The position numbers were made by a program, and so were the translations under genes. A stretch of DNA of 32,113 nucleotides from an uncultured Gammaproteobacteria bacterium (GTDB taxonomy: Bacteria; Patescibacteriota; Patescibacteriia; UBA11705; JABHMO01), in the NCBI GenBank assembly GCA_964486065.1, contig CAZAKN010000007.1:1-32113 (forward strand), read 5' to 3'. Under the pieces are notes generated by a model. It saw only the letters and a list, made by a program, of their open reading frames with translations. It was not told the DNA's origin and did no database searches. Position 1 is the stretch's first letter; each line of letters begins with the position of its first letter. This document shows, piece after piece, positions 4,889-29,404 of the stretch.

Positions 4889-4915
4889 ATAAGAATATTT
4901 TTGCTTGCCATTAAA

Positions 4916-4943: not shown

Positions 4944-4984
4944 GTCATTAATTCTATTAACAAAAACCAATGGGAAAGAGTAAA

Positions 4985-5131
4985 CTAGTTTTCATTAACA
5001 GCTTGGTTAAACTCCTTGCGATCCGTCCATTCGGCTTTTTTCCCGTTGTTCCAACGAGAAACCGGGCTCAGATAACCGACTACGCGTGAGTAAATTTCAC
5101 ATTTTTGTCTTTCTAGCTTTTGAGAGGTCAT
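4985..5131 (-). CDS. Stand-alone NrdD C-terminal glycyl-radical domain (48 aa; not in the supplied ORF track)
   Basis: Hand translation MTSQKLERQKCEIYSRVVGYLSPVSRWNNGKKAEWTDRKEFNQAVNEN*. YSRVVGYL...WNxGKxxE..DR is the class III RNR glycyl-radical loop and C-terminus. A-rich leader like neighbouring genes. Confidence 0.92.
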   Translation of the reverse strand: MTSQKLERQKCEIYSRVVGYLSPVSRWNNGKKAEWTDRKEFNQAVNEN

Positions 5132-5251
5132 AGACTATTTTTTTATTTTATTATTTTTATTTTATATCAACGATTTAAAAATTGTAATTACGAACAATCT
5201 GGTGAAACGCTAACCTCGGAACGCGGAACATAACACGCGGAACGGGACGAC

Positions 5252-5498
5252 AACACTGCCCACAACGCACCACACTGCTCACAACGCACCACACTGCTCA
5301 CAACGCGCCACACTGCTCACAACGCGCCACACTGCTCACAACGCGCCACACTGTTCACAACGCACCACATTGACCACAACGCACCACACTGCTCACAACG
5401 CACCACACTGCCCACAACGCGCCACACTGCTCACAACGCACCACACTACTCACAACGCGCCACACTGCCCACAACGCGCCACACTGCTCACAACGCAC
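5252..5498. repeat. Tandem array of 13 x 19-bp units, consensus CACACTGCYCACAACGCRC
   Basis: Read directly: 247 nt = 13 abutting units, no spacers, few substitutions. Confidence 0.97.
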
Positions 5499-5542
5499 TG
5501 AACACGAAACCTTGACTACTTCATAATCCGTAAAATCACATT

Positions 5543-8871: not shown

Positions 8872-9579
8872 TTAACGCGTAAATTCATATTCCACTCCGT
8901 CTTTTTCCACCACCACTTGCCAACCGTTCTTCCGAGCCGTGAGCAATAATGATTGTTTCGGATTGAAACAAATCGCCTTGCCGGCCAAATCCAAATAGTG
9001 CATATCCTTATTTAAAGAACCTATCGCCCATACATTATCTTTTATAATATGTCCGAATTCGGGACGACGCATAATGCTCATTAAGGTTGCTCCGGAATTA
9101 ATTGCTTCGGGAATCAAAGAGGTGAATATACCGTCAATGATTTCATAATCAGCGCTGATCACTTCTTGAATGTTAAACTGACGCGCTACTTTTTCGGCAA
9201 TAGCTCCGGGCAAAACGGATAATCCGATAATCTGCCAATCTTGAGCTGATTTTTCTTTGAGTAAATTATCCGTGTAAAAATATTTGCGATCATGATTTTT
9301 CAAAATGGTGATTTGAGCCACTTTTTCGTAATGCTTTATCTTTGTTCCCGCCAAAAATTCATCATGAGCTTTTTGAACAGCTGAAATATAATCCTCGTAA
9401 TCAAGTTGTTTTTTCCGCCAAGCTTCTTCGGCTTGTTTATAATCAAATAAGGCCAATTTCGGCCAAACTCCTTTTTCAACCAAAGCATCGCACATTAAGC
9501 CCTGCAAATTGCCAGGCAATAAGCATTCATCCAAATTAATGAATAAAATACCTTGTTTGTGCATAAATTTTTTATTCAA
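8872..9579 (-). CDS. Degenerate HAD-IB paralog, probably catalytically inactive
   Basis: Colinear with the downstream HAD (CDALVEKGVWPK vs CDKLVELGVFPK; ICFNP/ICFQP; GWQVVVEKD/GWPIVTERKD), but motif I reads FINLDEC and motif IV GSLNKD. Start may be the ATG at 9564. Confidence 0.8.
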   Translation of the reverse strand: MNKKFMHKQGILFINLDECLLPGNLQGLMCDALVEKGVWPKLALFDYKQAEEAWRKKQLDYEDYISAVQKAHDEFLAGTKIKHYEKVAQITILKNHDRKYFYTDNLLKEKSAQDWQIIGLSVLPGAIAEKVARQFNIQEVISADYEIIDGIFTSLIPEAINSGATLMSIMRRPEFGHIIKDNVWAIGSLNKDMHYLDLAGKAICFNPKQSLLLTARKNGWQVVVEKDGVEYEFTR

Positions 9580-13197: not shown

Positions 13198-14388
13198 TTA
13201 AAGCCCCACGCTCGGCGTCTCAATATTGCCATCTTGTCGCAAATAATCAAGTTCAAAACTATCCACGATTAAAGCGAACAAAGCCGGATAATCAGCTTTA
13301 TCTTTTAACCCGATATTATAATTAATGGTGTAAACTCTATCACCCTTGCCGATATACACGGTGAAACCGTCCGGACTTTCCAAAACATCCAAACCGCGAT
13401 AATTTTCATATTTACTCAATTCATCAACATCCACTCCGGGAGCCAAACTGGAATACCACTGCGTGGTGCTGACACTGGGCTGTTTTTCATAAACAATCAC
13501 ATTGATAAATTCCTCAGGACTTAAAGTAATCACCAATTCCCGCGGATCTTCGTCATTCATCGCTTCCACTCTCCATGCTTCCGGATAAATAAAGCTATAG
13601 CCGTAAACTCCGTTTTCATATTCGGTCATAAATGGCGCTTCCCACAAACGACCGGTTCCGGCTTGCAAAGGTGAATAATAATTTTCTATTTCTTCATGAT
13701 CTTGATAACCGTCTTTATCAGAATCAATCAACAGCTGATTGGTACCAAGCAAATCTTCCTCCATATCGGTTAAACCGTCATTGTCCCGATCCGTATTTTT
13801 CAATAAATCAATGGAAAACTCTTTAATATCGGTCGGATCAAATTCTTCCAGTTCCGCTACTTCAATTTCTTCAGGCTCCTCTTCCTCAGCCGGCTCTTCT
13901 TGCGCGGGCGGAGTAAATTCTTCTTCATCTTGTTCCTCTTGATTTTGCTCCTGTCCCAATTGTGTTTGATCGGTTTGATTTTGCCGTGCTACTTGCGTTT
14001 CTTCGGCTTGTCTGACATTTTCCGCCGGTGGAGCGATATAAACCTGCCAAAACAACCAAACCGCCACGGTGATAATGGCCAAGCCGGTCACAGTCACGAA
14101 AAGCAAAAAAAACTTTTTATTACCACTTTTATTTGCTTTAGCGGTTTTAACTTGCTCAGCCACTTTTTTGATTTTTTCATTACCGGGGACGGAAGTGGCC
14201 TTGGCCGCTTCTTTGGTTTGTTCTCCCAAATAATAATCCATGGGCATAGTATGAATCTCTTCTTTCGGTTGGGCGGATTGGTCAACCTGCCGATCCTTTG
14301 CCGGTTTTGCTTCTTGATTTTCCGGTTTTTTATCAGGCATTGGTTTTTTGTTTTCTTCAGGTTTATTATCTTTTACACTGTCAAACAT
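13198..14388 (-). CDS. Single-pass membrane protein with bacterial TSP3-like Ca-binding repeats and a C-terminal PsbP-like domain
   Basis: Low-complexity N-terminus, TM segment FFLLFVTVTGLAIITVAVWLFW, acidic stalk, DRDNDGLTDMEE...DSDKDGYQDHEE, then YENGVYGYSFIYPEAW...IVDSFE (PsbP-like pattern, by eye). Confidence 0.75.
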   Translation of the reverse strand: MFDSVKDNKPEENKKPMPDKKPENQEAKPAKDRQVDQSAQPKEEIHTMPMDYYLGEQTKEAAKATSVPGNEKIKKVAEQVKTAKANKSGNKKFFLLFVTVTGLAIITVAVWLFWQVYIAPPAENVRQAEETQVARQNQTDQTQLGQEQNQEEQDEEEFTPPAQEEPAEEEEPEEIEVAELEEFDPTDIKEFSIDLLKNTDRDNDGLTDMEEDLLGTNQLLIDSDKDGYQDHEEIENYYSPLQAGTGRLWEAPFMTEYENGVYGYSFIYPEAWRVEAMNDEDPRELVITLSPEEFINVIVYEKQPSVSTTQWYSSLAPGVDVDELSKYENYRGLDVLESPDGFTVYIGKGDRVYTINYNIGLKDKADYPALFALIVDSFELDYLRQDGNIETPSVGL

Positions 14389-14547
14389 ATTTTTTATATT
14401 TAAATATTTAATCTAGGAACGCAAAGATATGAATACGGAATACGAAACCGTAAACCCGCACCTCTACTGAGATATCTTTACAAAGATGTCTATCTTTGGA
14501 GACCCCGCATACAATTTAAGCTCTAAACAATTGCAAATTTCCAATTC

Positions 14548-15045
14548 CTAATTTTCAACATCAAAATTCAAAAGCCTGCCCGGACCTTTCGGATTGTAAC
14601 CGGACAACAATTCTTCTCCATCCAAATATCCGTCTCCGTCCGTATCCGCTCGCAAAGGATCGGTGCCGAATCTTTTCTCATCACCATCCGACAAACCGTC
14701 ATTATCCGTATCAAATTTTTCCGGGTTGGTTCTGTTTTTTATTTCTTCGGCATCGGTTACGCCGTCATGATCCGAATCTTTTGTCGCGACATCTCCTTTC
14801 CCTTCTTCCTCTGATTCAATCACTTCCGGCTCCATAGGTTCTTGATCTTCTTCTATCGCTACTTGTTCGTCCGGCAATACATTATCTTGAGCCGGCGTTG
14901 TCCCAAATCTGCTCAAAGCCACCATAGCGATAATGAAAAACAAAACCACAATCAAACCGCCACCCACCAAAAAAAACTTCTTATGCGCGCTTTCCTTTTG
15001 CGGTTGATAATTATATTCTTGATTGTGTAGAAAATCATTTTCCAT
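14548..15045 (-). CDS. Single-pass membrane protein with three TSP3-like DxDxDG Ca-binding repeats
   Basis: TM segment FFLVGGGLIVVLFFIIAMVAL; DSDHDGVTDAEE, DTDNDGLSDGDE, DTDGDGYLDGEE...GYNPKGPG. ATG at 15045 lies 1 nt after the giant gene stop. Confidence 0.8.
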   Translation of the reverse strand: MENDFLHNQEYNYQPQKESAHKKFFLVGGGLIVVLFFIIAMVALSRFGTTPAQDNVLPDEQVAIEEDQEPMEPEVIESEEEGKGDVATKDSDHDGVTDAEEIKNRTNPEKFDTDNDGLSDGDEKRFGTDPLRADTDGDGYLDGEELLSGYNPKGPGRLLNFDVEN

Positions 15046-15046
15046 A

Positions 15047-18000
15047 TTAATATCCTTCAATTACATTGCCTAAAATAGCATTAACCAATTGTGGCATTAA
15101 TTCTTCCAAGGTATCAGCACTGCCTTGCTGATATATACCATGGAAATCCTCGTTATCAGAATAATCGGTGGTATATGCCTGATAAAAATTTTGATATGGA
15201 TTTGTGCCTGATTTGTTGATAAATATCAAATTAACTCTGGCTTTTTTCCCGGCTTCAAGTTGAAGGGCAACCTTTTCCATATCACTATTTTGATATTCCC
15301 AACCTTCACCATCATCATCATTCGGATTGTCCGCGGCATCCGTAACAATAATATAGATTATATTCTGATAATCATTTATTTCTTCAGCGACTTGAAAGAA
15401 ATATTCATTTATCCATTTCGGCATGGGACCGCCTCCACGATACCATCTATTATCTGGCAAACTATATAAACTATCTAATAATTCTTTCACTTCCGTAGCA
15501 TCATCAAAAAATTTTGTTGGCTTGGTGTAATACGCATTATTAACTGGAGAATCCTTTATAGGATCACTAGTCCCTCCGTAAACACTGAAAAAAGTATTGT
15601 TATTATCAATAATCTCATCTGCTTTCTCGGCAATCTCCTCTATGAATGTTTTTTGGAAATTATTTAAATCATTATTAAATTTATCACTATTACCCGGCCC
15701 CATACTGCCGGACAAATCCAAGAAAAACGCAAATAAAGTCGGTTCTGATAAATTAATAAAATTATCTCCTTCAGTATTATCATAAGAATTACTGCAACCC
15801 GGATCTTTCGGATAATCAATCTGTCCGTCATTATCATCATCAACTCCATTCATACAAATCGGTAACCCGTTTTCAAACGCCGGCGTGCTGTCATAAACTA
15901 TGGCTTCTGACAAAACATTATCCAAATTGGGGAAAACTTGATAATCAACTTCTTCTTCTATTTCATCTGTCGGCGGTTCAAATTTCGCGCTCAAACGATA
16001 TCCCAGCCGGTAACTGTCGGTAACATTGGAAGTATAGTAATAAACATAATTTTCTTCCGGATGATTATATATCGGCGCGAACGGCTTATCTTCTCTTTCC
16101 GTTTCATCACGATTATAAAAACCAGCGTCATAACAAGTGCTTTTATCAAATGGTCGGCTACAAGCCACGCATTCATGTCCGGGAACCACGCATTGATTTC
16201 CGACCGAACAACGCAAAGTTTGCCCGTCTTGATCTTGACCGCACAATTCCCCCGCGTAAGCAGAATCGGGACCGTCAAGTCCGGGACTATTCCATTGCAG
16301 ATGATTATACGGATCCAAAGGCAAAAGCGTGCCAAGCGCTGAACCCAATTCATTTTGCCAGCTGGGCCAAATACTGAAGGTATCTCCGCGACTGTAGGTT
16401 CCGCCTTGCAAAAGTGGCACTTCATCATTATGCGATTTTTTGTATAAATCAAGATAATAACGGAGCATCACCATATCTGAAACTCTTTGCGTATTGCGGA
16501 TCAATTTATCTTTTTTAATGATTTCATTATCACCATCGCTGAGATTCAAATTGAATTTCATGAATTGTACCAGCTGAGAAACAATATTGCCGGTAGCTGA
16601 ATTACCATCTTGAGAATAACCCAGCAAATAAATATTATTGTAAACATTATTAACCTCGCCATCGGAATAAAGATTGGTAGCCGCTATATAGGTGGAAGTC
16701 CCATCCTGAATACCTTGATAACAATAGCGACCATAACGATCTTCCAAACAATCCGCTTCAAAAGAGCTTGGCGAACCGGAAACATTCGGAGCATAACGAG
16801 AATACCAAACTTCAGGTGGCAAAAATTCCGGATTCTCATAAACGCGCAAAGAAACCGCGTCCAAAGCTTCATCATTTTGTCTGGCTGAAGCGCGAGAATA
16901 TTCATCATCGCGAGTGAAAAAATATTGAGCCAAAAGCGCGGGTTCTTCCCAAGGATCACCGATTTCTTTGCATTTCGGATCATCCAAATCAATCAATCCG
17001 TTAAAATCATTATCTTCGCCATCATTACATTGATTGGCCCTGTCTTGACCGCTCGTGGCGGTCGCTTCTTCACTTAAGCCCAATGCCTCCGCCAAAGTAC
17101 CCAAATCAACGAACTCAAAATCTCCCACCGGAGTATTATTTTCCGTTCCACGGATATTGTCGCAACTAGAATTACTATCCTCCGCGGTACAATGAGTTAC
17201 CGCTGGCTCACTGATACCGGAAACATTATAATTATTATCAAAATTTACCTTGAAAAATTGTCGATATGTATTTGTACCACTTACATGTTTTCGTAAAATT
17301 AATTCATCAACATAACCGTTCAATGAAGTATTAGGAATATTGGTTTGTCCCATGCCTCCGATATAATAAGCATTATCACCGCTCCAATCATATAAATTTG
17401 TTACCAGCGGATTCATTCTAAATGATCTACTATTTATTGTTACCTCAAATAGATAATTTGGGTCACCTTCAAATCCCTCAGGGTAGTATGTTACCTTTAT
17501 ACGATTAAAACCAAATGGTATTTTTCCCAAACGATGCCCATCCGAGTGGAAGACTTTTTCTTCATCACCTCTTTTCATGCCAACTACTACAATGGCCTCA
17601 TTGGAGTTTCCGGCTTTTCGTAAAGCAATTTGCACATTTCCTCCCGGGAAATTTTTATAAAACAATCTGGCATAGCGATCTTCCGGCGTGTTTACATTCA
17701 AAACCCAAGCATCCAAACTCCATCCTTGGCTACCCATGTCAAAATTTGCCAAGTCCGGTATTTTTACATAATCAAAATTCTTATCAAAATATATACCACT
17801 TCTGGTTCCCCCTTCCAGTTCGTAAAAACTCGCGCTCTTCAAAGCCAGTTTCGGCAAATCATCATGCAAACCGTAAGGCGCACACATCTCATTACCGATT
17901 CCCAAGCAGGGAGAATCTTCCTTCGGCTTATTATATAAATCATAATCTGTACTCGGATCACACAGCGTGACGCCGTCTTGGCAAACATAAACCGGTCGGC

Positions 18001-21000
18001 ACAAACCATCGCCAATACCATCGCAAGGCGAATTGTCCGCGGGCGCGCTTCCATTATTATGAATTTCAGAATTACAAATCGTTTCCCTGTCATAACAAGT
18101 TTCAATCAAATTATCACCAAAATCACGACAATAGAACAAACCGATATTGTATTCCATTTCCCGCAAATAAGTCGGCTGTTCTTCCCCTTGATTGGTGGTA
18201 ATATCTCTCATGATAAATTTATTTTTATTATCTCCTCCCGGCGTGTATCTGTAGTCTTGCGCTATAGCACCATCCCATTCGCCATCAGCGGAATTATATT
18301 CAAACCAAGGATTATCACAAATCATCACTTCAACTTGTCCGCTTCCTTCATGTCGCTTGCCAACCGTGCTTCCGGTTTGTTCTCCGCCGATGGAGGCATT
18401 ATCCGCGGTAATCACGGCATTGGCGAAAACCAAAGCGATTCCGTCCTTGTCGCCGGTAGTGATCTCGGCCAAGCCTCGTCCGCCGAATCCCGAACCCGAA
18501 TCTTCATCTTCCCCAATATTTGTTACGATGGTCGTGTCATTCGTGTCCCAATGCCATTGCCAATCATAAACATTGGCAATGGAAATCAGTTCATCACCAT
18601 TGCGAGCATAAGCTACGGCTGAGTATGCTTCTTCATGATTTCTATCTATCACGAAATTATCCGATGGATCAACTTTTATTTCGTTTATTTTGCAAATATC
18701 CGCTCCGGTGGTGAATTGCCGCGACAAATTGACTCTATGCTCTTCATCAGCGCACAGATTTTCAATATCATTAAGTTCCACCAAATGCACTTTTTTACCT
18801 TGCAAAGCTTCCAATGGAACAATTCTTAAAACGCTTTGACCTAACTCATTTTCACTCAAATTAAGCCTCGTGGAAACTTCACACCATTCGTTTTCATCGG
18901 CAGCCAAACCGATTTTGAAAAGCAATTTTTTCACGAAAGCCACGGTTTTTTGCCACAAATCTCCCAACCAACTTACCTGATCATCGTAACGAGAATAAAG
19001 CGTTAAAATTTCTTTTTCCGATAACTTTTGATTATAAATCATGAATTCATCTATCAGCCCGTTGTAAGGCTTCATGTAATTAAAAGTACCAATATCCAAT
19101 ATTTGCCCATCCCGAACATCAGCACCCACGGACAAGGTGTCATAATCAGCATAAGGTATTTGGAAATTTTCGCTTCCCAATCTTCTTATTTTTTCACCAT
19201 TTAAATAAAATTTAACCGGCTCAGCTTCATCAGTTAAATCCAAACTCAAAACCGCGTTATGCCATGTATCAAAATCAATACTTGGTTTTGCTCTTTCAAT
19301 GGAGAATGAATCTGAGGCACTTGATTCATAAGCGAAAACAAAATTGAGCGAATTATTGCCGACAGTTGAACCGTAAACGGAAACCAACATTCGCGGATAT
19401 TCATTAGCTGAATTTTGTAAGACAAAAAGATTTTGTATATTATTAATTTTTTCATCATCCAATTTAATCAACATGGAAACAGTCATTGCTTCAGGCGCGA
19501 AATTAAAGTTTTGCAAACTGACGAAACCTTTGCCGGTAAACTTCAAAGCATTGCCGGATTTGCCGGGTTCCTGAGTGGCGCTGACTATTTTGCCGGTTAA
19601 ATTATTACCCATTTCATTTCCACCTTCATCAATATACAAATCACGCGCTTGCACCGCTCCCGCTTGCTCATCAAACTTCCAAGCAATAAAAGGTCGCGGC
19701 AAATAATCAGCCAAACATTGTTCTCCTTCCGCCAATTGGCGATATAAGCCGATATTATCTTGAGTTATGGACTCTTTGTTTACCGCTTTATCAAAAGTTA
19801 CTTTTACCAAAGAATTACGACAAACATTTTCATCGCCTTGATTCGGTTTGGTAGCGTTTTCATTGATTCCGACATTGTCAATAAAACATTGTTCACTGCG
19901 CAAAGTAACGGGAGTATTGGTGTCAACTTCGTTTACTTCGTTAGGTTCCAAACTTTCCGTAACTTCCAAATTGATTTGATCGCTTTTTTCCGAAAATCGG
20001 GTAACCGCGTTCCAGTCCAATTCACTCCATATAATATCCGCCAAACTTTTTATTTCAAATGTTTGATAAGGACTGACCCATCCCTCGCCAAACGGAACGC
20101 CTCCCGATTCACAGCCCTCGTCTTCACCTTGATCCAAATCTCTATCTCCGCAAACCGAACCGTATAAACCGGAAGAACCTTTGTTCAAACAAGTATCCGT
20201 GCAATATTCCGGCAACTCGCAAACACAACCGTCTTCATTTACCGGATCATCGCATGGCATCACGCGTAAACCATCCTCACAGCCTTCATCTATCGGCTTG
20301 CAAGCCACTTGTTTCACGCAATTAACATATTCACATTCTTCATCTTCTTCTCCATCCCAATCATAATCTTCTTTAAAACCATTACCGCAACACGCGCCAT
20401 CCGTTCCGTCGCAACTTGGAAATCCTTGCCATAAACATTTATCCGAACAATAGGGATTATTTTCAATCGCGCATTGATATTCATCATCAAGACAAGTCTC
20501 GTCTCCGTCGGGGTTACACTTTTCAACTCTATGCCAAGCCAAAGCTCCGCTCGCGTCGGTTCTGACCTGACAATCCGATTGTTCCGGACCGCAATTCTCA
20601 TCTTCGCTGTATTTTACGCAAATGGCTTCACATTCTTCACCGGCTTCAATTTCGCCATTACCGCAAATACTCGGCGCTTCACCTACCGCGTCAACTTTAT
20701 AAACCGCGCCTTTGTTCAAACATTTAGAGTCTAGCCAAGCCACTCTATTCCCCTCGGAAGTCAAAACATCAGCATCTTCCCCCGGCTCAAGAACACCGTT
20801 TCCGCATTTATATCCCTCCGTTGTTCCGGCGTTCAAACATTGCCCGGTACAAGCGCTGTTCAAGCCACGACAAACGCATTTGGCATTATCAGCTGAAGGT
20901 TGACATTCATCACCATTACTATCAAGCCAAACACAACCGAAATCACATTCTTCATCTTCAACTCCATCCTCATCATAATCTTCTTTAATACCATTACCGC

Positions 21001-24000
21001 AACAATTCACACCATTTTTCAAATCTTCACAATTGGCAAACGGTTCTTTCAAACAAATATCACTGCAACCGTCGCCATTATCTAAATCATCATCATCGCA
21101 CTCTTCACCGTCTTCTATTTCACCATTACCGCAAACCGCTCCGGGGGGCAAAGAACCTTTATTTAAACAATTATCCGTGCACCAATCAGGATTTTCTTGC
21201 TCCACGGTAACCGCAGTAAAATCTTTTAAAATATCATCTTCATCGGTTATAGACCAACCCCAAGTATAATCTTCATCAAACGGATTTAAAGCTTGTCCGC
21301 TGGCACGGCATTCATCAGGTTCGCTGTATGGCAAAGCCGAATAAGCGATTTTTTCATCATATTCTTGTGTTACATAATCATCAGGCAAAATCTCCAACCT
21401 ATTGATGCGACATTCGGTGTCATCATTTCTGGTTTTAAATATCCAGCTGAAAGCATTGAACCGACCTTGCGCACCGGCTTCATAATCTTCCGCCACACCG
21501 CAAATGCCGTTGTCCGAATAATAAACCTTGTCTGCAAAATCAGATATATCAGATATATCAAAAAAGCTTTGATAAGTGCTCGGATCGTCAACATTAAAAT
21601 TATCCGCGTCAGCAAGCAAATAACACAGCTTTTCATTTATACATTCAAAAATATAAGTATCATCTGCGTACTCCGCACCAAAAGCAAAATTATAACATCG
21701 GAAAGTTTCCGGATCTTGGCAGTTTAATGTTCCGGGTTCAGCTCCGTAACTCGCGAACGCGCCCGCTTCCGTGTCGTAACAACCACACACATAATCCAAT
21801 GCTTTGTAGCCTTCGTTGTTCGGTTCAGCTTCTCCATATCCGCCGGTTAAATCTATTTGATTATCAAAATTATTATCCAAACCGTCAGCGCAATCCCCAT
21901 TATTGCCGGAACCGTGAACATAATTCAAACCGGTTAATTTATCACCACCAAAACTTCGCGCCTCTTCAGTTATAACTACTCGGTAAAATTTATTGGGCAA
22001 TAAATTTTCAGCCGGAGAAATCAATAATTTACTGCTCAGCGGACTACCCCCGTCATAACTATTGTAATCATTAATTACAACTTCATCCAACACATTACAA
22101 TCAACGGATTGACAAGAAAATAATTTCACATTATCCGAAATCAATGTATCTCCATCCATTTGTGTATTAAAATTAGCTCCCACCGCGGCGTTTATACATG
22201 CTTCACGACAATCGGGAAAATAACCGACCACTCGCGGATCCACGAAATTTATATCCAGTTTAGCTCTTTGCGACACATCTATTCCATCAATAGTGGCTCC
22301 CGCTTGAATTATGGCAGGATCATTGGGCGCGGTTTCCGAATAAGACAGCAAACCAAATATTCCGATATCTTTTCTGTCTGCTGAAAAAAAGCTTTTGAAT
22401 TCAAGCTTGTCTTCGTGTCTCGCCACGGTCCAATTCCAATCTTTATCAGCCATGGAAATCATTTCGCATTCCGCTAGTCCCATGACCGTGTAAGCCTGTT
22501 CACCTTCGGGTGTGTCAATCAAACCTCTGGCCGGCGTTATTAACAAAGAAGTCGGTGAACAATCATCCGCTTTGGTACGAAAGCGCCATTTGTAATCAGA
22601 AGTCAAAGGTTGCGATGCCACTCCATCTTCATTTCCTTGACTTTGTATCCCAGGGATCAGATTTCCAGCCTCGTCAAAACGATCAGACAACAATTCAACT
22701 TGGTACCAGCTTTCGGCTGATAAATCATTCCATGTTTCATTTAAAAATATGGCGGTGGCTTGCTCCAATACTTCACATTCGCAACCGCCTTGTCCGTGTT
22801 GTCTTTCACTGCAAGAAGTGCCGTCTTCATAGCGACAATCAACCGCATTGTTTTCAGTGACATCATTTGAATTTGAATCAATCACTCCGGAAAACACAAT
22901 TTCACAACCGGCACCGCATTCATCCAAATCACAAGGTGGTTGACGATTTTCTTGAATCTCATCATCCGTAACGGTAGTATTACATTTTTTAACTATTACA
23001 TTATTGTTAAAACTTGCTTCATCCATCAATGTATTAAAAGTCGCGGAAATAATTCCGTTCGGACAAGCGTTGATTTCATTTTTTCGCGGTGAAACCGACT
23101 GTGTGATATTCAGCTCCGGAATACAATATCTTTCCACCACCCGTGGCACGATCGGCAAAGGTCCGGTGCTTAGAGCCCAAGCAAATTCAGATTCATAACT
23201 CATGGCGCGATCAAAACAAACCTCCTCTTTGGTTTGTCCCGAAGCCGGATCCAAAGCTCGGCAAACTCCATTACCGCAACAGACGCGCCCATCTCCGCAA
23301 TCTTCATCTTCTCCGCAAGATCCCACAGAGAACAAAATTCCGTTACTCCGCTTAAACGGCAATTGATCCGCTCCGGCGCAAATAACATCCGCGTCATCTT
23401 CTTTGCTCATGCCTTGAGGCACGGACAAACATTGACCACTCGGCTGACAACAGATATTTTCTTGCGGACAATAAAGATTTTGTCCCTCTGATATTTGACA
23501 AAGTTTTTGTTGTAAATAAACAGCGCCGGTTTGCGCTCCGGCCGGCACTCTGGCGCCGGCAATGGATTCTTCTTGCCAAGAATAATTGGCATTAAAACTC
23601 TCCACGGCCTGATCATCATCCGTTCCCGACTGTCCGGCGAAAACTATTTCCCACGGCGAAGCGTCATACACTCCGTATTCACCAAAATTAAATCCGGTTA
23701 ACCCGAAAATCGTCTGTTCCGGCCCATTGTCGGGATTTATTGAACAAATACCAGGTGCCGGCAATTCATTATTTATATTTAAAGCAACAGGATCGGATTC
23801 CACGCCCGCGGAATTGATGACTTTTACTTGGAAAGTTTCCGAAGCAACTTTGTCGGGAATATTAATTAAAATTCGCGAATTGGTCCAAGATCCTTCACCG
23901 CAAGTTAATTCTCCTTGCAAAGTTCCTTGTCCTCCCACAAATTCCACTGTTCCCACATTATTACCAAAAGCCGAACCTTGGATAGTGATCAATTGTCCGG

Positions 24001-26305
24001 CCGGCGCCGGTGAAGGTGAAATTTCATCAATTGTCGGCACGGTCTGAATGGTTTGAACTCTGAATCCCACCGGATTACTGTATAAATTTCTGCAATAACA
24101 ATCTTCCTCGGTTTCCGGATCACATAAGTCTCCGCCTTGGCAAAAGCAACCCAATTCTCCTTGATCACAAACTTGCCCCTCTTTACAAGAGCAATCTTCA
24201 GTTCCTTGTTCACATTCTTCACCTTCGGAAGTTTGACAAACCGTCTCCGTTGAACAATTAAGCGGTGTGCGACAAATTTCTCCTTTTTGCACCACCACAT
24301 TTACCATCTGTCCGTCCATGGCCGGCACTTGCGCGCCGGTAATGGTTTCATTGTCCCAATCTCCTCCCGCGCCGATAAGTGATGACATTTGCGCGAAAAA
24401 TATATTATCTTGAACATCTTTATCTTCACCAAAATAAATTCCTTGCAATCTGACCGTGTCATCCAAGGCTTCGCCTTTCATACATTTTTTCAAACAATCC
24501 TGATCATCACCACAGGAGGTAAAACATTCTTCTTCAAAAACACTACACAATCCGGGCGCGAACAAATCTTCATCCAAAATGAAATTGCCCTGCCAACCGC
24601 GATCGTTCAAAGTATCGTCATAACCGAATTCACCTTCAATTTTAATCGGACCGTTGATGGCGGTGTCCGGCACTTGCGCCACAGTCGCGTAATCGCGCCA
24701 AGACAAATTGGCATTACAGCCGAAATCAGCTTCCACGAATACAGGATTGCCCGACTCGTCATAACTTTCGGTAAAATATATTTTACTTATTTGTTCATTA
24801 AATTCGCCGAAATCTCGTCCCGCTACGGTAATTAAACTGCCGGGCGCGGCCGCGCTGGGAGCTATATCCTGAATAGTCGGCCAATCCACGCAAAATCCAA
24901 CCGTTTCTCCCTCGGGGATAAAACATTCAAATTCGCATTCCGCGTCATCCAAACAAGCATCTCCTCCGCAATTCGGGCATCCGGGAACTCCGCAAAGCAT
25001 TTCTTCCCCCGTACAACAATCTTCCGGCCAAACTTTAACGCGGATACTTCTCTCGCCTTCATTACCGTCCAAATCCTCAGCTTGCGCCATTAATTCCGCG
25101 GAACCGGTCGCCACATCTTCATCAATCGTCCAGACGAAAGACGCTTCCATTTGTTCAGGCGTTTCTTCTTCACCTGAACCCTCCAAACCAATCAGCGTTT
25201 CATTATGATACAAAGCAATATTACTGACACCGATATTATCTCTGGCACGCAAAATCACATCCGCCTGAGAATTACGACAAACACTGTCATAATTGGTCAA
25301 ACCGGGTGGCACGAAAGAAACACGAGGCGCTGAATTATCATAAATATTGCCCGTGGCAAAATCTTGCGCGCATTTGGCGCCAACCGGACAAGTTAAAGAT
25401 AAATTATTTCCCGTCGTATCGGTTTCCGTGGATTTTAAAGCACCGGCAAGCAAAGAAACACGATACAAAGAATCCTTGTCAAAACAACGATCCTCTTCGT
25501 TTTCTTCGCAAACCTTAGTCGGCTCAAAAACTATTTTCCGAGCATCATTTTCAAAAGTCAAAGTTCCGTCCACCGCCTCATAACAACGCGCGTCCGCCGA
25601 GCTCCATTCCGCGCTACAATCCGCTTGACCCGCCAAACAAAAACCACTTGTCCAATTGCCGTTTACGGCCAGACAATCTTCTTCGGTTTCCGCTTCCAGA
25701 GTTATGACTTTTTGAATTTTAATCGTGTCCGCGTCCGCGGTGGATTCCAGCACCGGCCGGTTAAACACGATTCTGACTTTTACATTATAAATTTTTTGCT
25801 TACCCGCCGGTGAAATGGAAGTCGCCACAAAATTCTTCTGACCGGACAAACAAAAACTACCGATACATCCGCCGTCACCATCGTCTCCGCCAACAATGCT
25901 TCCTCCCGTGGTCGCGTCGGTTAATCTACTGATAATAAAAGAAGTGATCGCGTATGCCGATAAAATTATCACCAACCCCACAATCGCGCTGATAATATAT
26001 TTTTTGGCTTTGGCCACTTTTTCCTGCTCACCACCGGAAGTCATGTATAAAAACCCGGCGTACAAGATCAAACCTAAAAATATTACGCCTAAAATACCGA
26101 GGAATGCATTAATAATCCGACCGACGATAATCCTCGGATCCGTGGCGCTCAGACCGGTTTGTTCACCCACCTGAGAAACACCCAGATCGCCCAAACCTTC
26201 ACTTTGCGCGAAAACCATTTCCACGCCCGAATTAAAAAAACCAACCATGAAACAAATCATCGCGATCGCGATAAATAAAAATTTTATTTTCTTGAACTCA
26301 ATCAT
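15047..26305 (-). CDS. Giant (3752 aa) multidomain surface protein/adhesin with N-terminal VirB2/TrbC-like pilin domain
   Basis: Signal peptide (VFA|Q); pilin-like two-TM domain (~25925-26150); Ig-like modules (SP...V.I.FN.PV type); IPT/TIG repeats (PTIQDIAP...ITVAGRDFG; PTIDEISP...ITIQGSAFG); Myxococcus-type Cys-rich CGNGxxExGEEC repeats (~20100-21135); two LamG-like domains (~19005-19690, ~17295-17800); CxDGxDNDxxGxxD repeats; GspG-like segment; C-terminal vWA (DLSGS MIDAS, IIVTD). Confidence 0.88.
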   Translation of the reverse strand: MIEFKKIKFLFIAIAMICFMVGFFNSGVEMVFAQSEGLGDLGVSQVGEQTGLSATDPRIIVGRIINAFLGILGVIFLGLILYAGFLYMTSGGEQEKVAKAKKYIISAIVGLVIILSAYAITSFIISRLTDATTGGSIVGGDDGDGGCIGSFCLSGQKNFVATSISPAGKQKIYNVKVRIVFNRPVLESTADADTIKIQKVITLEAETEEDCLAVNGNWTSGFCLAGQADCSAEWSSADARCYEAVDGTLTFENDARKIVFEPTKVCEENEEDRCFDKDSLYRVSLLAGALKSTETDTTGNNLSLTCPVGAKCAQDFATGNIYDNSAPRVSFVPPGLTNYDSVCRNSQADVILRARDNIGVSNIALYHNETLIGLEGSGEEETPEQMEASFVWTIDEDVATGSAELMAQAEDLDGNEGERSIRVKVWPEDCCTGEEMLCGVPGCPNCGGDACLDDAECEFECFIPEGETVGFCVDWPTIQDIAPSAAAPGSLITVAGRDFGEFNEQISKIYFTESYDESGNPVFVEADFGCNANLSWRDYATVAQVPDTAINGPIKIEGEFGYDDTLNDRGWQGNFILDEDLFAPGLCSVFEEECFTSCGDDQDCLKKCMKGEALDDTVRLQGIYFGEDKDVQDNIFFAQMSSLIGAGGDWDNETITGAQVPAMDGQMVNVVVQKGEICRTPLNCSTETVCQTSEGEECEQGTEDCSCKEGQVCDQGELGCFCQGGDLCDPETEEDCYCRNLYSNPVGFRVQTIQTVPTIDEISPSPAPAGQLITIQGSAFGNNVGTVEFVGGQGTLQGELTCGEGSWTNSRILINIPDKVASETFQVKVINSAGVESDPVALNINNELPAPGICSINPDNGPEQTIFGLTGFNFGEYGVYDASPWEIVFAGQSGTDDDQAVESFNANYSWQEESIAGARVPAGAQTGAVYLQQKLCQISEGQNLYCPQENICCQPSGQCLSVPQGMSKEDDADVICAGADQLPFKRSNGILFSVGSCGEDEDCGDGRVCCGNGVCRALDPASGQTKEEVCFDRAMSYESEFAWALSTGPLPIVPRVVERYCIPELNITQSVSPRKNEINACPNGIISATFNTLMDEASFNNNVIVKKCNTTVTDDEIQENRQPPCDLDECGAGCEIVFSGVIDSNSNDVTENNAVDCRYEDGTSCSERQHGQGGCECEVLEQATAIFLNETWNDLSAESWYQVELLSDRFDEAGNLIPGIQSQGNEDGVASQPLTSDYKWRFRTKADDCSPTSLLITPARGLIDTPEGEQAYTVMGLAECEMISMADKDWNWTVARHEDKLEFKSFFSADRKDIGIFGLLSYSETAPNDPAIIQAGATIDGIDVSQRAKLDINFVDPRVVGYFPDCREACINAAVGANFNTQMDGDTLISDNVKLFSCQSVDCNVLDEVVINDYNSYDGGSPLSSKLLISPAENLLPNKFYRVVITEEARSFGGDKLTGLNYVHGSGNNGDCADGLDNNFDNQIDLTGGYGEAEPNNEGYKALDYVCGCYDTEAGAFASYGAEPGTLNCQDPETFRCYNFAFGAEYADDTYIFECINEKLCYLLADADNFNVDDPSTYQSFFDISDISDFADKVYYSDNGICGVAEDYEAGAQGRFNAFSWIFKTRNDDTECRINRLEILPDDYVTQEYDEKIAYSALPYSEPDECRASGQALNPFDEDYTWGWSITDEDDILKDFTAVTVEQENPDWCTDNCLNKGSLPPGAVCGNGEIEDGEECDDDDLDNGDGCSDICLKEPFANCEDLKNGVNCCGNGIKEDYDEDGVEDEECDFGCVWLDSNGDECQPSADNAKCVCRGLNSACTGQCLNAGTTEGYKCGNGVLEPGEDADVLTSEGNRVAWLDSKCLNKGAVYKVDAVGEAPSICGNGEIEAGEECEAICVKYSEDENCGPEQSDCQVRTDASGALAWHRVEKCNPDGDETCLDDEYQCAIENNPYCSDKCLWQGFPSCDGTDGACCGNGFKEDYDWDGEEDEECEYVNCVKQVACKPIDEGCEDGLRVMPCDDPVNEDGCVCELPEYCTDTCLNKGSSGLYGSVCGDRDLDQGEDEGCESGGVPFGEGWVSPYQTFEIKSLADIIWSELDWNAVTRFSEKSDQINLEVTESLEPNEVNEVDTNTPVTLRSEQCFIDNVGINENATKPNQGDENVCRNSLVKVTFDKAVNKESITQDNIGLYRQLAEGEQCLADYLPRPFIAWKFDEQAGAVQARDLYIDEGGNEMGNNLTGKIVSATQEPGKSGNALKFTGKGFVSLQNFNFAPEAMTVSMLIKLDDEKINNIQNLFVLQNSANEYPRMLVSVYGSTVGNNSLNFVFAYESSASDSFSIERAKPSIDFDTWHNAVLSLDLTDEAEPVKFYLNGEKIRRLGSENFQIPYADYDTLSVGADVRDGQILDIGTFNYMKPYNGLIDEFMIYNQKLSEKEILTLYSRYDDQVSWLGDLWQKTVAFVKKLLFKIGLAADENEWCEVSTRLNLSENELGQSVLRIVPLEALQGKKVHLVELNDIENLCADEEHRVNLSRQFTTGADICKINEIKVDPSDNFVIDRNHEEAYSAVAYARNGDELISIANVYDWQWHWDTNDTTIVTNIGEDEDSGSGFGGRGLAEITTGDKDGIALVFANAVITADNASIGGEQTGSTVGKRHEGSGQVEVMICDNPWFEYNSADGEWDGAIAQDYRYTPGGDNKNKFIMRDITTNQGEEQPTYLREMEYNIGLFYCRDFGDNLIETCYDRETICNSEIHNNGSAPADNSPCDGIGDGLCRPVYVCQDGVTLCDPSTDYDLYNKPKEDSPCLGIGNEMCAPYGLHDDLPKLALKSASFYELEGGTRSGIYFDKNFDYVKIPDLANFDMGSQGWSLDAWVLNVNTPEDRYARLFYKNFPGGNVQIALRKAGNSNEAIVVVGMKRGDEEKVFHSDGHRLGKIPFGFNRIKVTYYPEGFEGDPNYLFEVTINSRSFRMNPLVTNLYDWSGDNAYYIGGMGQTNIPNTSLNGYVDELILRKHVSGTNTYRQFFKVNFDNNYNVSGISEPAVTHCTAEDSNSSCDNIRGTENNTPVGDFEFVDLGTLAEALGLSEEATATSGQDRANQCNDGEDNDFNGLIDLDDPKCKEIGDPWEEPALLAQYFFTRDDEYSRASARQNDEALDAVSLRVYENPEFLPPEVWYSRYAPNVSGSPSSFEADCLEDRYGRYCYQGIQDGTSTYIAATNLYSDGEVNNVYNNIYLLGYSQDGNSATGNIVSQLVQFMKFNLNLSDGDNEIIKKDKLIRNTQRVSDMVMLRYYLDLYKKSHNDEVPLLQGGTYSRGDTFSIWPSWQNELGSALGTLLPLDPYNHLQWNSPGLDGPDSAYAGELCGQDQDGQTLRCSVGNQCVVPGHECVACSRPFDKSTCYDAGFYNRDETEREDKPFAPIYNHPEENYVYYYTSNVTDSYRLGYRLSAKFEPPTDEIEEEVDYQVFPNLDNVLSEAIVYDSTPAFENGLPICMNGVDDDNDGQIDYPKDPGCSNSYDNTEGDNFINLSEPTLFAFFLDLSGSMGPGNSDKFNNDLNNFQKTFIEEIAEKADEIIDNNNTFFSVYGGTSDPIKDSPVNNAYYTKPTKFFDDATEVKELLDSLYSLPDNRWYRGGGPMPKWINEYFFQVAEEINDYQNIIYIIVTDAADNPNDDDGEGWEYQNSDMEKVALQLEAGKKARVNLIFINKSGTNPYQNFYQAYTTDYSDNEDFHGIYQQGSADTLEELMPQLVNAILGNVIEGY

Positions 26306-26330
26306 TCACTTTTAAACTATATGAACTTTT

Positions 26331-28925
26331 TTATTCTCTGGGGTCAGCGGCGCTTTCGCATTCCGGATCATCGGGATAATCAGTAAATTCATCTCCGTCA
26401 TTATCAATGTCGTCGCTACATTCCGGCAATTCTTCAGGGTTAATTTCGTCAGGATCGTCTTCGTTAAAACAACCGGGATCATTGGGAAAATCAACTTTGC
26501 CGTCTCCATCATTATCCAAACCATCCGAACAAGCCGGTGTCGGATCACCGGGCACTCCGCATCTGGCCGCTTCGCTGGACGATAACTTATATGAACCATT
26601 CAAATCCGGACAACAGGATATTCCGGCTCCGCCGGGAAAATCATCAATATTCGAGCAATCTGAATTGGCTACCCTTTCATCCTTGCTCGGCGTAAAACAA
26701 TTTTGTCTCAAATCTTTAACCAGATGTCTGACCACCGGCGTGTAAATCGGCGCGGGATCGGTTTCATTGATATCTTCTTCATTGTCACAACCGGGATCCT
26801 CCATATCGGTCAAACCATCTCCGTCATCATCAAAATTATTGGCGCAAGCATTATCAATATCATTCATCGGTTTATATTCGGTAAAAGGACCGTGCGTGAT
26901 TACCGCTTTGGTAAAGTCACTTTGTTTCTCATACACGGGATTACCCTCTTCATCGTAAACAGAATTTCCCCCTTCGGTTTTTGGAATTGAGAATTCCCCT
27001 ACATTGGGATCCCACCAACCCCTGAAATCAGCACCGTAAATTTTTATTTCATTATCAATGGATGCCGGAGCCATGTCTTCGCTAAACTCAATTTCAATTA
27101 AAATATTGGGCGAAACTCCCGCGTTAGCGCTTCCATCATTATCCGGTGAAACTGACACAATATAAGGCGGAATCAAATCCAGTTCATCACCGGTTTTAAA
27201 ATTCCACAAATAATTATCTTGAATGTGATTATCAAAAAGAGTTTTATCTTCGTCGGATAAATTCTCTCGCAAAGGGTAAGTCGGCAAAGTCAAACCCGAA
27301 ACATCGAAATTTTTCTCTCCCGGTCCTTCCGCTTCTTCATTCGCGTTCCCGTCCAAAGAATTTCCCGCGGAATCCGTAATACCGCTACCGATCACTCCGG
27401 CGGGTCCTCCACCGAGCAATTCCGCCGCGATCACCTTTGCGGTTAAAACTGATTCACTCGGCAAACAATAAGCCGGCTCTCCACAAGAATTCCTATCCAC
27501 GCCTTCACATTTAACCGCGCTGGTAAACTGAACAGTTTTATAACCGTTTAAACCGACTTGCCAATTGCCGGGCACATGGTTGGTGTCGCAAAGCGGATCG
27601 CAAGTACAATCATCTTCTCCTTGATTGCAAATATTGCCTGCCGCATCACGGCAAACCCTGATCTTCTCGTCATTTTCCAATTGTATTTCATTATCCGCGT
27701 CGCCCGCCGTGCAAAACTGAGCTTGTCCCAGTGGCGGAATAATCGGCTCATTAAAATTGACCACCACGATTTGATTTAAATAAACTTCTCCGTTCTCATC
27801 CAACCTGCGATCCTCTTCATTGGGATAAACTTGCGCTTTCGGGATAACTGACGAAACTCGTGGAGGAGTTAAATCAATGAAAGTTCCCGTAGTAAAACGC
27901 CAATAATACTCGGAATTGGCAAAATCAAACACACTACCTGTGCCATCTTCACGCATAATCTCGGGCGTAAGATGAACAATGTAGCTGACATTTTCTTCCG
28001 CTGTACCCAAGTGTTCATCAGTATCTCCGTATGGATTGAAAATAATGGTTTTATGATCCGCGGTCATCATGGCGTATCCGGGAACCAAAGAAGCGCGTCC
28101 CATCACATCCGTCCCGCCGAACTCGGGATCGTCAATCTGCACGGAAACACATTCATCCGGTTCGTTTTCCGCCGGCCAAACACCTTCTTCGCCTTCCAAA
28201 ACCGGCATGGAATCACAACGGAAAACTTTAATGGGCATATTTTCTTCGGTTAAAATCAAACCGCCACAAGCTTTTTGCCCGGCTCCCATGCCTTCATGTG
28301 TTCCTTCGGGACAAGAATATTCCTCGCTATCGGGATCAAGAATTGAAGCGGGGTCAACCGGCATTTTAAAAGTTACCATAATCATGGTATTGCGTGGCAC
28401 GCCTCGTTGCTCGGGGTTGGGAAAATGACTTTGGATAATACTACCAAAAGCTCCGCCGGACAAATTATAACCGGGGGGCAAACCGGTAATTTCCAAACCA
28501 CCTGTCGGTTCTTGCTCAAACATGCTGAACAAAAATCTGGTTATACCGTAAGCCGATAGAATTATCGCCAACCCGATAAATCCGTTGATTAAATATTTTT
28601 TGGCTTTGCCGACTTTTTCCGGCTCACCGCCGGAGGTCATATACAAAAAACCAGCATATAATACTATCCCGAGCGCCACCACTCCCAAAATGCTGAGAAA
28701 TATATTGATGATTCGGCCGGCAATACTGCGCGGATCTTCGGAACTTAATCCGGTTTGTTCGGCCACGGGTTGCATATTGCCGGAAATTTCTCTTTGCAAT
28801 TGAGAAGTCGCTCCGGGCACTTGCGCGTCAACTCGCGGAATAAATAAAAAACCGGCCAATATTAAAATCACCAAACCAGTTAGAATTGTTGAAAAAAATG
28901 AATTTTGTTTGAACTGTCCCCTCAT
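26331..28925 (-). CDS. VirB2/TrbC-like pilin-domain surface protein with Ig-like domains and Ca-binding CxDGxDNDGDG repeats
   Basis: Signal peptide (VDA|Q); pilin domain SEDPRSIAGRIINIFLSILG...YAGFLYMTSGGEPEKVGKAKK; Ig-like DLTPPRVSSVIP / DLIPPYIVSVSP modules; three C-terminal CxxxxDxDGDxxxD...DPxC repeats. ATG at 28925 preferred over the TTG at 28943. Confidence 0.88.
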   Translation of the reverse strand: MRGQFKQNSFFSTILTGLVILILAGFLFIPRVDAQVPGATSQLQREISGNMQPVAEQTGLSSEDPRSIAGRIINIFLSILGVVALGIVLYAGFLYMTSGGEPEKVGKAKKYLINGFIGLAIILSAYGITRFLFSMFEQEPTGGLEITGLPPGYNLSGGAFGSIIQSHFPNPEQRGVPRNTMIMVTFKMPVDPASILDPDSEEYSCPEGTHEGMGAGQKACGGLILTEENMPIKVFRCDSMPVLEGEEGVWPAENEPDECVSVQIDDPEFGGTDVMGRASLVPGYAMMTADHKTIIFNPYGDTDEHLGTAEENVSYIVHLTPEIMREDGTGSVFDFANSEYYWRFTTGTFIDLTPPRVSSVIPKAQVYPNEEDRRLDENGEVYLNQIVVVNFNEPIIPPLGQAQFCTAGDADNEIQLENDEKIRVCRDAAGNICNQGEDDCTCDPLCDTNHVPGNWQVGLNGYKTVQFTSAVKCEGVDRNSCGEPAYCLPSESVLTAKVIAAELLGGGPAGVIGSGITDSAGNSLDGNANEEAEGPGEKNFDVSGLTLPTYPLRENLSDEDKTLFDNHIQDNYLWNFKTGDELDLIPPYIVSVSPDNDGSANAGVSPNILIEIEFSEDMAPASIDNEIKIYGADFRGWWDPNVGEFSIPKTEGGNSVYDEEGNPVYEKQSDFTKAVITHGPFTEYKPMNDIDNACANNFDDDGDGLTDMEDPGCDNEEDINETDPAPIYTPVVRHLVKDLRQNCFTPSKDERVANSDCSNIDDFPGGAGISCCPDLNGSYKLSSSEAARCGVPGDPTPACSDGLDNDGDGKVDFPNDPGCFNEDDPDEINPEELPECSDDIDNDGDEFTDYPDDPECESAADPRE

Positions 28926-28960
28926 TTGCCTGAAGCCGATCAAATCGGCCGTTATTTTAT

Positions 28961-29404
28961 TTAAGAAACTAATTCTTTGACGATTTTCCCCACCAAGCCT
29001 CCATCGGCTTTGCCTTTCAGTTTGGCCATCACTTGCCCCATAACCGCGCCAAAATTATTTTTTTGTTCTTCCGTCAATTCGTCAATGATTTTTTTTGCTT
29101 CTTCTCTAACCTGATCTTCGCTCATTTGTTCGGGCAAATATTTTTCCAAAATCACTAATTCCGAAGTTTCTTTTTCCGCCAAATCTTCTCTGCCACCGTC
29201 TTTGAACGCTTCAATGGAATCGCGTCTTTTTTTTGCTTCACTTTTCAATACCGCCAAAGCCTCATCCGCGGTCAGATCTTTTTTCAATTCAATTGCCTTG
29301 TTTTTTAAAGCTGTCTTGAGCATCCGTAAAACTGAAAGTTCTGTTTCGCGTTTAGCTTTCATGGCCTCCACCAAATCTTTTTCCAACTGCTTGATAATTT
29401 CCAT
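28961..29404 (-). CDS. yqeY: GatB/YqeY domain protein
   Basis: AMKAK...LRMLKTALKN, KKRRDSIEAFKDGGREDLAEKE..E...L..YLPEQMSE, GAVMG, GKADG. Follows rpsU. Confidence 0.93.
   Translation of the reverse strand: MEIIKQLEKDLVEAMKAKRETELSVLRMLKTALKNKAIELKKDLTADEALAVLKSEAKKRRDSIEAFKDGGREDLAEKETSELVILEKYLPEQMSEDQVREEAKKIIDELTEEQKNNFGAVMGQVMAKLKGKADGGLVGKIVKELVS

Follow-up and report, generated by a model that had tools for sequence, protein, structure and literature searches.

A conserved pair of pilin-headed proteins with predicted adhesin-like ectodomains in a patescibacterial genome: candidate cargo-bearing VirB2-type pilins

Two neighbouring genes in a stretch of patescibacterial DNA (GenBank assembly GCA_964486065.1, contig CAZAKN010000007.1) encode proteins of 870 and 3752 amino acids (aa), each of which starts with what resembles the small subunit of a conjugative pilus. 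The window, i.e. the whole stretch of 32,113 nucleotides (nt) that was analysed, is the entire contig C7 of a genome of 965 kb and 99% completeness. The locus raises the question of what a pilin domain does at the head of proteins of this size. Patescibacteria account for a large share of the uncultured bacteria, and a host-attached way of life is assumed for them; we know of no contact molecules described for them outside a few Saccharibacteria. The original prediction, made on this DNA without database searches, had taken the domain for an assembly tag that co-polymerises the two proteins with free pilins and so displays a host-binding arm. Our analysis leads us to favour, tentatively and a little short of even confidence, the reading that the two genes encode cargo-bearing ("modular") VirB2-type pilins, in which a two-helix hairpin coupled to a type IV secretion system (T4SS) would act as the carrier.

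The large open reading frames (ORFs) of the window all lie on the minus strand, and the ORF list and its translations contained both neighbouring genes as originally described. The genes and their pilin modules map as follows:

26331..28943, minus strand: 870-aa pilin-headed protein (P0002), longest frame, with a TTG start at 28943
15047..26305, minus strand: 3752-aa pilin-headed giant (P0001), ORF open over 11.3 kb
28509..28763, minus strand: pilin module of the 870-aa protein, residues ~61-145 (PF18895, 42.5 bits; short helix, transmembrane helix, basic loop, transmembrane helix)
25898..26188, minus strand: pilin module of the giant, residues ~40-136 (PF18895, 36.8-44.9 bits; hairpin in the AF2 model; profile match 40-136)

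The database record of the 870-aa protein begins at the ATG at 28925 (864 aa), and the start of the giant lies 25 nt past the stop of the 870-aa gene. As computed from the sequence, the giant has a mass of 412.7 kDa, an isoelectric point (pI) of 4.1 and 151 Cys (4.0%), in agreement with the acidic, Cys-rich protein of ~410 kDa that had been anticipated; its neighbour has a mass of 94.3 kDa, a pI of 4.06 and 24 Cys. Both thus exceed the ~70-190 aa of small, stand-alone pilins. Contigs of run X2, from the same study as the likely source, span positions 14000-29000 and are near-identical, and those of run X3, from another study, span positions 14000-24400 with 95-99% likeness.

The identity of the N-terminal domain was assessed with profile searches. 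PF18895 (T4SS_pilin, cut-off 26.6 bits) matched residues 63-124 of the giant with 36.8 bits and residues 74-138 of the 870-aa protein with 42.5 bits, so that the domain can be assigned, as had been proposed, to a complete pilin module of the VirB2/TrbC superfamily. The two N-termini, expected to be closely similar, share 43% identity over 194 residues (E 6e-35). Moreover, PF18895 was matched by 27/27 aligned modules, and the classical TrbC/VirB2 profile PF04956 by 19 of the 27 at E<=0.01 (best 5.7e-7); against the PF04956 cut-off of 27.9 bits, the giant's own module scored 17 bits and the scanned free pilins at most 27.6 bits. The NCBIfam model NF045849, which describes the Mbov_0395 family of a Mycoplasma integrative and conjugative element (ICE), gave 35.5 and 29.6 bits with the two modules, below its cut-off of 40. 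No type IV pilin family was found among the Pfam matches of either protein, whose N-terminus consists of a Sec-type leader and a hairpin.

Specifically, each protein carries a hydrophobic N-terminal leader ending in an Ala-x-Ala-type site (predicted signal-peptidase sites VFA↓Q and VDA↓Q, read from sequence alone). As judged by alignment and hydropathy, the leader is followed by a short amphipathic segment, a transmembrane helix, a basic loop of the form GG-x-x-EKV-x-KAKK and a second transmembrane helix. The hydrophobic segments of the giant cover residues 4-29, 58-90 and 102-129, with none beyond residue 130. Since this predicted hairpin has both ends outside and the giant has no later hydrophobic segment, everything after helix 2, that is the whole ectodomain, is expected to be extracellular. 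An AF2 model of the module, based on the 27 aligned sequences, shows a short helix followed by a hairpin (H24-56 and H61-100) with a mean pLDDT of 78. Foldseek searches with this model returned no match at E<=0.001, and the top rows of VIA-align were generic helical hairpins with Z ~10. Structure searches are therefore uninformative for this module, since such a hairpin hits ESCRT-III and coiled coils just as well. The module profile found nothing among the PDB sequences (best E 0.17).

Conservation within the module was then compared with that of the rest of the proteins. In the 870-aa family (nine orthologues), the hairpin is the best-conserved 30-residue stretch, with 65% identity against ~48% in the Ig-like parts. 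The cytoplasmic loop is conserved like the transmembrane helices, both in the fused modules (0.75) and in free pilins (0.78), whereas the Gly-rich linker after helix 2 falls to 0.37, compared to 0.75 for the helices. In addition, the alignment revealed invariant Gly, Ala and Lys positions common to the fused and the free forms. Conservation along the transmembrane helices follows a one-sided helical periodicity, which did not separate an anchor from a polymer.

The two modules of one genome also resemble each other more than expected from orthology, with a mean identity of 64% (8 genomes) against 52-57% for orthologous modules of different genomes. In a tree built on 87 columns, in which most forks are unresolved, three module pairs group by genome with bootstrap values of 90-97. 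Recent gene conversion was considered as the cause of this within-genome likeness and rejected, because codon identity at shared residues is merely 0.49 within genomes, against 0.37-0.39 between them (nine pairs; the totals include the G013 pair, which was cut out of register). Part of the within-genome excess may be due to shared codon bias. All together, we argue from these comparisons that the module probably has the function of a free pilin and that the two proteins form a matched pair.

If the hairpin acts as a pilin, the genome would be expected to encode the partners of such a protein. The original prediction had placed free pilins elsewhere in the genome, and a count of paralogs located ten of them outside the window, all above the PF18895 cut-off and 128-153 aa long, nine in tandem on contig C5 and one on contig C9. 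They align with the fused modules over their full length and end 5-15 residues past helix 2. One of them (C5:36561-36947) has identities of 57.5% and 51.7% with the two fused modules, the mean identity among free pilins being 34%. The nine tandem genes occupy C5:35660-39625 (L015 13661-17626), flanked by genes for a solute-binding protein and a bifunctional PGI-like protein, and are not adjacent to virB4.

As had been stated, no T4SS ATPase was found in the window (none among the 18 other ORFs scanned), and a genome-wide check found such ATPases elsewhere: one VirB4-like and two coupling-protein-like. Contig C4 carries a PrgI/VirB3 gene and the VirB4-like P-loop_TraG/AAA_10 ATPase, and the coupling-protein-like (T4CP-like) ATPases are encoded on C11 and C6. 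The two C4 genes are preceded by one for a polytopic 913-aa protein, which is proposed as VirB6 solely from its topology; neither PF03135 nor TrbL had a profile match in the genome. The core locus as a whole (C4:49881-61491, L023) comprises a surface protein with a Lamin-tail domain (750 aa), the 913-aa polytopic protein, two proteins of 529 and 416 aa without assignment, PrgI, a further unassigned protein of 226 aa, VirB4 and a bitopic 196-aa protein. Judged by its gene content, the genome holds the set of a chromosomal patescibacterial T4SS (MPF-FATA-like), namely VirB4, PrgI/VirB3, a coupling protein and a pilin array. One PilB-type T2SSE ATPase makes it probable that the genome also encodes a type IV pilus system.

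A second, diverged pilin-like hairpin with a sub-threshold PF18895 match was found in two further proteins of the genome, encoded at C3:76811-78199 (L027, 462 aa) and C4:87243-88307 (L028, 354 aa, with a weak VanY match). The hairpin may serve ectoproteins in general as a carrier, and the protein with the VanY match could be a wall hydrolase linked to the T4SS.

The cargo that would be carried was analysed by domain searches and by tiling, with the following features:

27039..27173, minus strand: best Big_5 Ig-like match, 870-aa protein, residues 591-635 (Pfam)
26334..26855, minus strand: acidic double-disulfide (C-x-DG-x-DND-type) repeats, 870-aa protein, residues 697-870 (NF033662)
23789..24037, minus strand: IPT/TIG domain, giant, residues 757-839 (Pfam)
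22967..23101, minus strand: Big_5 Ig-like domain, giant, residues 1069-1113 (Pfam, exactly at the cut-off)
20366..21133, minus strand: Cys-rich region, giant, residues ~1725-1980, with five of the giant's six CGNG motifs (motif count)
19007..19537, minus strand: Laminin_G_3 / concanavalin-A-like lectin domain, giant, residues 2257-2433 (Pfam)
15806..17053, minus strand: conserved distal head, giant, residues 3085-3500, with an acidic disulfide repeat at its start (tiling, alignment A2)
16544..16945, minus strand: candidate PsbP/Mog1/DcrB-like alpha-beta domain in the head, residues ~3121-3254 (AF2, VIA-align, hhalign)
15050..15808, minus strand: variable C-terminal module, giant, residues 3500-3752, with DxSxS at 3530 (tiling; possibly vWA-like, unconfirmed)

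The domain labels first given to the ectodomains stood in part: Big_5, TIG, Laminin_G_3, the CGNG motif and the acidic calcium-type repeats were recovered, whereas vWA and DUF4215 were not. NF033662 matched three stretches of the 870-aa protein with 49.7 bits against a cut-off of 41, and the C-terminal part of this acidic-repeat region is genome-specific among the nine orthologues. In the giant, the tile 431-830 contains two TIG stretches, which places a further TIG upstream of 757-839, and a second Laminin_G_3 match at 2842-2899 is weak. The label DUF4215/PF13948 was dropped after twelve tiles over residues 131-3752 of the giant gave no match at E<=0.05. The C-terminal 273 aa had no vWA match in Pfam at E<=0.1 and none to PDB sequences; the DxSxS motif at 3530 and ESM-Atlas neighbours with VWA at 0.86 are rated as a lead only. 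On the strength of the recovered domains, the ectodomains are predicted to be adhesin-like.

Tiling of the giant against 62 related giants revealed a collinear conserved core with variable inserts between the blocks. The tile 1-250 was matched in 62/62 giants, 751-1000 in 57, those covering 1251-1750 in 54-56, 2501-2750 in 45 and those covering 3001-3500 in 44-49. The tile 2251-2500, which contains the lectin-like domain, was matched in 1/62 giants, marking it as a variable module, and the C-terminal tile 3501-3750 in 3/62. The distal head (3085-3500) is present in nine of the ten locus giants and is terminal in four of them. It is almost confined to giants, with two shorter unnamed proteins carrying it among 6837 candidates. 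Its AF2 model is middling (pLDDT 60, core 70-85), and Foldseek found nothing with it at E<=0.001. In VIA-align, nearly all of the top 16 rows were named as PsbP/Mog1/DcrB/LpqN/MTC28/Apa-type proteins, with Z 6.0-8.1 over 91-111 residues, a Z range common by chance. These rows, together with the comparison by hhalign of the candidate PsbP-like stretch of the head with the C-terminal domain of the fourth protein of the cassette described below (probability 47%, E 1.9e-4, 94 columns), give a lead, resting on a weak match, that the head may have a PsbP/DcrB-like fold remotely similar to that protein.

The X2 and X3 contigs diverge from the window at 17253-17302 and 17408-17486, within approximately residues 2940-3020 of the giant, where they show several small deletions close together and 77-89 nt of replaced sequence. 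This strain-variable spot directly precedes the conserved head, and its flanks are near-identical.

Downstream of the giant lie two further genes on the same strand:

14548..15060, minus strand: 170-aa single-pass membrane protein with bacterial TSP3 calcium-binding repeats (PF18884, 63.9 bits)
13198..14388, minus strand: 396-aa single-pass membrane protein with TSP3-type repeats; its C-terminal domain is conserved and possibly PsbP-like (alignment A4, 8 orthologues)

The start of the 170-aa gene overlaps the stop of the giant by 14 nt, and orthologues of its product are encoded downstream of the giant in nine other loci. The PsbP_2 match of the 396-aa protein reaches 23.9 bits, under the cut-off of 27. 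Both proteins are predicted to have a cytoplasmic N-terminus and to hold their calcium-binding repeats outside. In related genomes the four genes occupy a fixed housekeeping site, in the order signal peptidase I, HisRS, S21, YqeY, the mid-size protein, the giant, a calcium-repeat protein of ~170-256 aa, a protein of ~360-397 aa, YbeY and DAGK. This order recurs in G001, G003, G006, G008, G013 and G023, and in part in G037, G002 and G040; in G002 the gene upstream of the giant is not a pilin, and G040 is without the mid-size partner. The syntenic cassette is thus found in 8-10 related genomes. An adjacent pair of PF18895 proteins in G017, which has a different architecture, was omitted from the alignments. 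Gene order and orthology indicate that the pilin-headed pair is part of a four-gene cassette with the two calcium-repeat membrane proteins. Promoter and terminator scans gave counts near the shuffled expectation (63 against 45.8 +/- 5.8, and 22 against 20, respectively) and defined no transcription unit.

The distribution of the two proteins was assessed in databases and in two genome samples. A search with residues 1-140 of the giant among proteins of 2063-6566 aa gave 53 clusters, itself included, from 285 candidates, and PF18895 was precomputed in 50 of these 53. With the ectodomain of the 870-aa protein, 192 clusters were obtained at E<=1e-10 among 8000 scored candidates, and 115 of the 120 listed carry PF18895; their source names suggest Falkowbacteria, Uhrbacteria, Magasanikbacteria and Komeilibacteria. 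NCBI automatically names some relatives of 640-710 aa "pilin" or "TrbC/VirB2 family protein". Each of 41 relatives has between 4 and 17 PF18895 matches per genome. Among the 150 of 483 matches listed, an adjacent mid-size and giant pair was found in G000, G001, G003, G006, G008, G023, G027, G036 and G037, and inspection of the locus added G013.

Within the class, the 870-aa family was detected in 148/301 sampled genomes (126/238 genera), mostly as frames of 540-760 aa. A phylum-wide sample recovered it in 7/201 genomes, all of the same class (G000 and six of the nine other class members), and in 0/191 genomes of other classes; in this sample the family is restricted to one class. VirB4 was found in 285/301 class genomes, and a phyletic coupling test of the family to VirB4 was uninformative, VirB4 being nearly universal.

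A profile search with the pilin module in 1.84 billion representatives retrieved 83,847 proteins at E<=0.001. Multi-domain proteins are favoured by the ranking, the top 150 of which comprise 115 proteins that chain 2-14 modules, 26 with one N-terminal module and a tail of at least 300 aa, 6 free-like proteins and 3 others. "Polypilins" (P0055-P0138 and others), for example one of 1775 aa with 14-17 modules, could be either genuine fusions or products of read-through in gene calling.

In the rest of the window, positions 4202-7615 encode an anaerobic ribonucleotide reductase NrdD with an ATP-cone and its radical-SAM activase, which fits an anaerobic lifestyle, and the products of two minus-strand ORFs, 8872-9579 (235 aa) and 3853-4098 (81 aa), matched no Pfam family at E<=0.001. 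Elsewhere in the assembly, the short contigs C13, C17 and C19 have a G+C content of 0.26-0.30, compared to 0.37-0.44 in the other contigs, and may represent a mobile element, a phage or mis-binned DNA.

According to the reading that we favour, both proteins would be exported by Sec and their leaders removed by signal peptidase I. The hairpin would then sit in the membrane with both ends outside, a topology predicted from the sequence, and stalks of 730 and 3600 residues, acidic, disulfide-rich and stabilised by calcium, would project from the cell. As a full pilin, the hairpin would be handled like the free pilins by the chromosomal Gram-positive-type T4SS, and as a carrier it would place both proteins, probably as a matched pair, at the tip or base of a pilus or in a pilin platform. 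The giant would show its conserved, possibly PsbP/DcrB-like head to a partner cell, together with exchangeable tips of a lectin-like and perhaps a vWA-like kind, and the two downstream calcium-repeat membrane proteins may be accessory parts of the same surface structure. The least secure step is the coupling to the T4SS and its pilins. A complex prediction for the two pilin modules, run without controls, scored 0.00 against a mark of 0.32 and decides neither way. A fuller picture, in which the T4SS builds a pilus or platform whose tip complex is a co-evolving pilin-fusion pair replacing the missing VirB5/PrgB adhesins, and in which the 413-kDa arm, the PsbP-like head and the swappable lectin-type tips would form the long-sought host-attachment organelle, strikes us as rather unlikely.

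Several observations weigh against a coupling of the pair to the T4SS. The neighbours of the cassette are housekeeping genes, and virB4 and the pilin array are far away. The T4SS exists without the 870-aa family, because the latter is present in 148 and VirB4 in 285 of the 301 class genomes; the family is also kept in 8 of the 16 genomes without a VirB4 match, which, these being drafts, is weak evidence. A cargo of 3600 residues cannot sit on every subunit of a shaft. Hairpin-headed ectoproteins, including the VanY-like one, and chains of 2-14 modules fit a general use of the hairpin as membrane anchor or platform, and the fold searches with it are non-specific.

Much of this would be explained if the hairpin had been recruited merely as a stable two-helix membrane anchor, and the two proteins formed, with the two calcium-repeat proteins, a static fibrous coat or adhesin layer independent of the T4SS. 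We consider this explanation quite possible, if on the doubtful side. It is compatible with the housekeeping neighbourhood of the cassette, apart from the T4SS genes, with the related hairpins that head the 462-aa and 354-aa VanY-like ectoproteins, with the fact that roughly half of the VirB4-containing class genomes lack the 870-aa family, and with the one-sided periodicity of transmembrane-helix conservation, as for a self-packed hairpin. On the other hand, a simple anchor would not need a full pilin including the pre-helix motif, nor would it lead one to expect that the hairpin is the best-conserved block of the 870-aa family, that its cytoplasmic loop and small-residue positions show the same strong conservation as those of free pilins, or that the modules match within a genome without recent gene conversion.

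C-terminal processing of TrbC/VirB2 pilins is known, and the free pilins stop where the Gly-rich linker of the fused forms begins. The module could accordingly be imagined as an export or release tag that delivers the protein to the T4SS, which would extract it from the membrane; the ectodomain would be cut near the linker and then released or passed to the cell wall. We judge this improbable, as no cleavage motif or protease was identified and the linker is poorly conserved in comparison with the helices. That several genes were joined into the giant frame, as a chimera or by read-through, is an idea that nothing but its size recommends and that can be dismissed for practical purposes: the frame is open over 11.3 kb, contigs of a second sample and of a second study are collinear with it, and so are the 62 related giants.

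The favoured reading, that of cargo-bearing pilins, can be set against systems already described. Free VirB2-like pilins of Patescibacteria occur in arrays of 2-11 genes (Quinonero-Coronel et al. 2025, PMC12102498), are described as stand-alone proteins of ~120-190 aa, often near virB4 (PMC12102498; PMC10633639), and are reviewed with the T4SS in PMC12857230. In the one species tested, Southlakia epibionticum, the T4SS and the VirB2-like pilins proved essential (Wang et al. 2023, PMC10633639); the supplement of that paper mentions PF18895 seven times, SEML1_0014, 0015, 0018 and 0019 among them being small proteins. The modules described here share with these pilins PF18895 and the leader with a two-helix hairpin, in a genome that also has a nine-gene array and a Gram-positive-type VirB4/PrgI core; they differ in the 730 and 3600 further residues and in the housekeeping site. 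The accessible text of PMC12102498, PMC10633639 and PMC12857230 makes no mention of cargo-bearing pilins. The Mbov_0395 family (NF045849), a pilin-like protein of a monoderm conjugation system to which the hairpin has a sub-threshold match, is likewise small and stand-alone, unlike the proteins reported here.

The closest analogues in design are the modular type IV pilins PilB (vWA) and PilC (ConA-like lectin) of Streptococcus sanguinis, which are presented by pili (Raynaud et al. 2021, PMC8179133) and for which a tip location has been proposed on steric grounds (PMC8179133). These also combine an N-terminal pilin carrier with modules grafted to its C-terminus, which in our case are Big_5, TIG, Laminin_G_3 and possibly a vWA-like one. 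In contrast, they have a class III signal peptide, a single helix and the type IV pilus machinery, with a cargo of one module or at most an 860-aa protein, whereas here the carrier is an unrelated VirB2-type hairpin and the cargo reaches 3600 aa. The T4SS tip and surface adhesins, namely VirB5 at the pilus tip and the Gram-positive PrgB type (PMC12857230), have the same proposed role in partner contact but are not pilin fusions, and the accessible text of PMC12102498 states that no PrgB-like adhesin was detected in Patescibacteria. Finally, the giant proteins of Vampirococcus lugosii (1392-4163 aa, PMC8080830) have a predicted membrane localisation, adhesion domains and a proposed function in host attachment; they resemble our giant in size, predicted localisation and adhesion domains, and differ in belonging to another lineage and in that the accessible part of that paper does not mention a pilin module. 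In the literature searched, largely outside subscription journals, we found no published description of VirB2-type pilins with cargo.

In conclusion, the pilin-headed pair is real and conserved, and can be viewed, on sequence grounds, as a variant of the VirB2-like pilins of Patescibacteria and of modular pilins, with a proposed mechanism that is plausible. A conserved pilin pair with a giant adhesin-like cargo provides concrete candidates for the attachment molecules of these bacteria. In some relatives, such adhesin-like parts are hidden behind automatic names like "TrbC/VirB2 family protein" or "pilin". Should the module indeed serve as a carrier, the "modular pilin" principle would no longer belong to type IV pili alone but would include pili of the conjugative type, and this conserved design may be a way in which these bacteria display attachment proteins.

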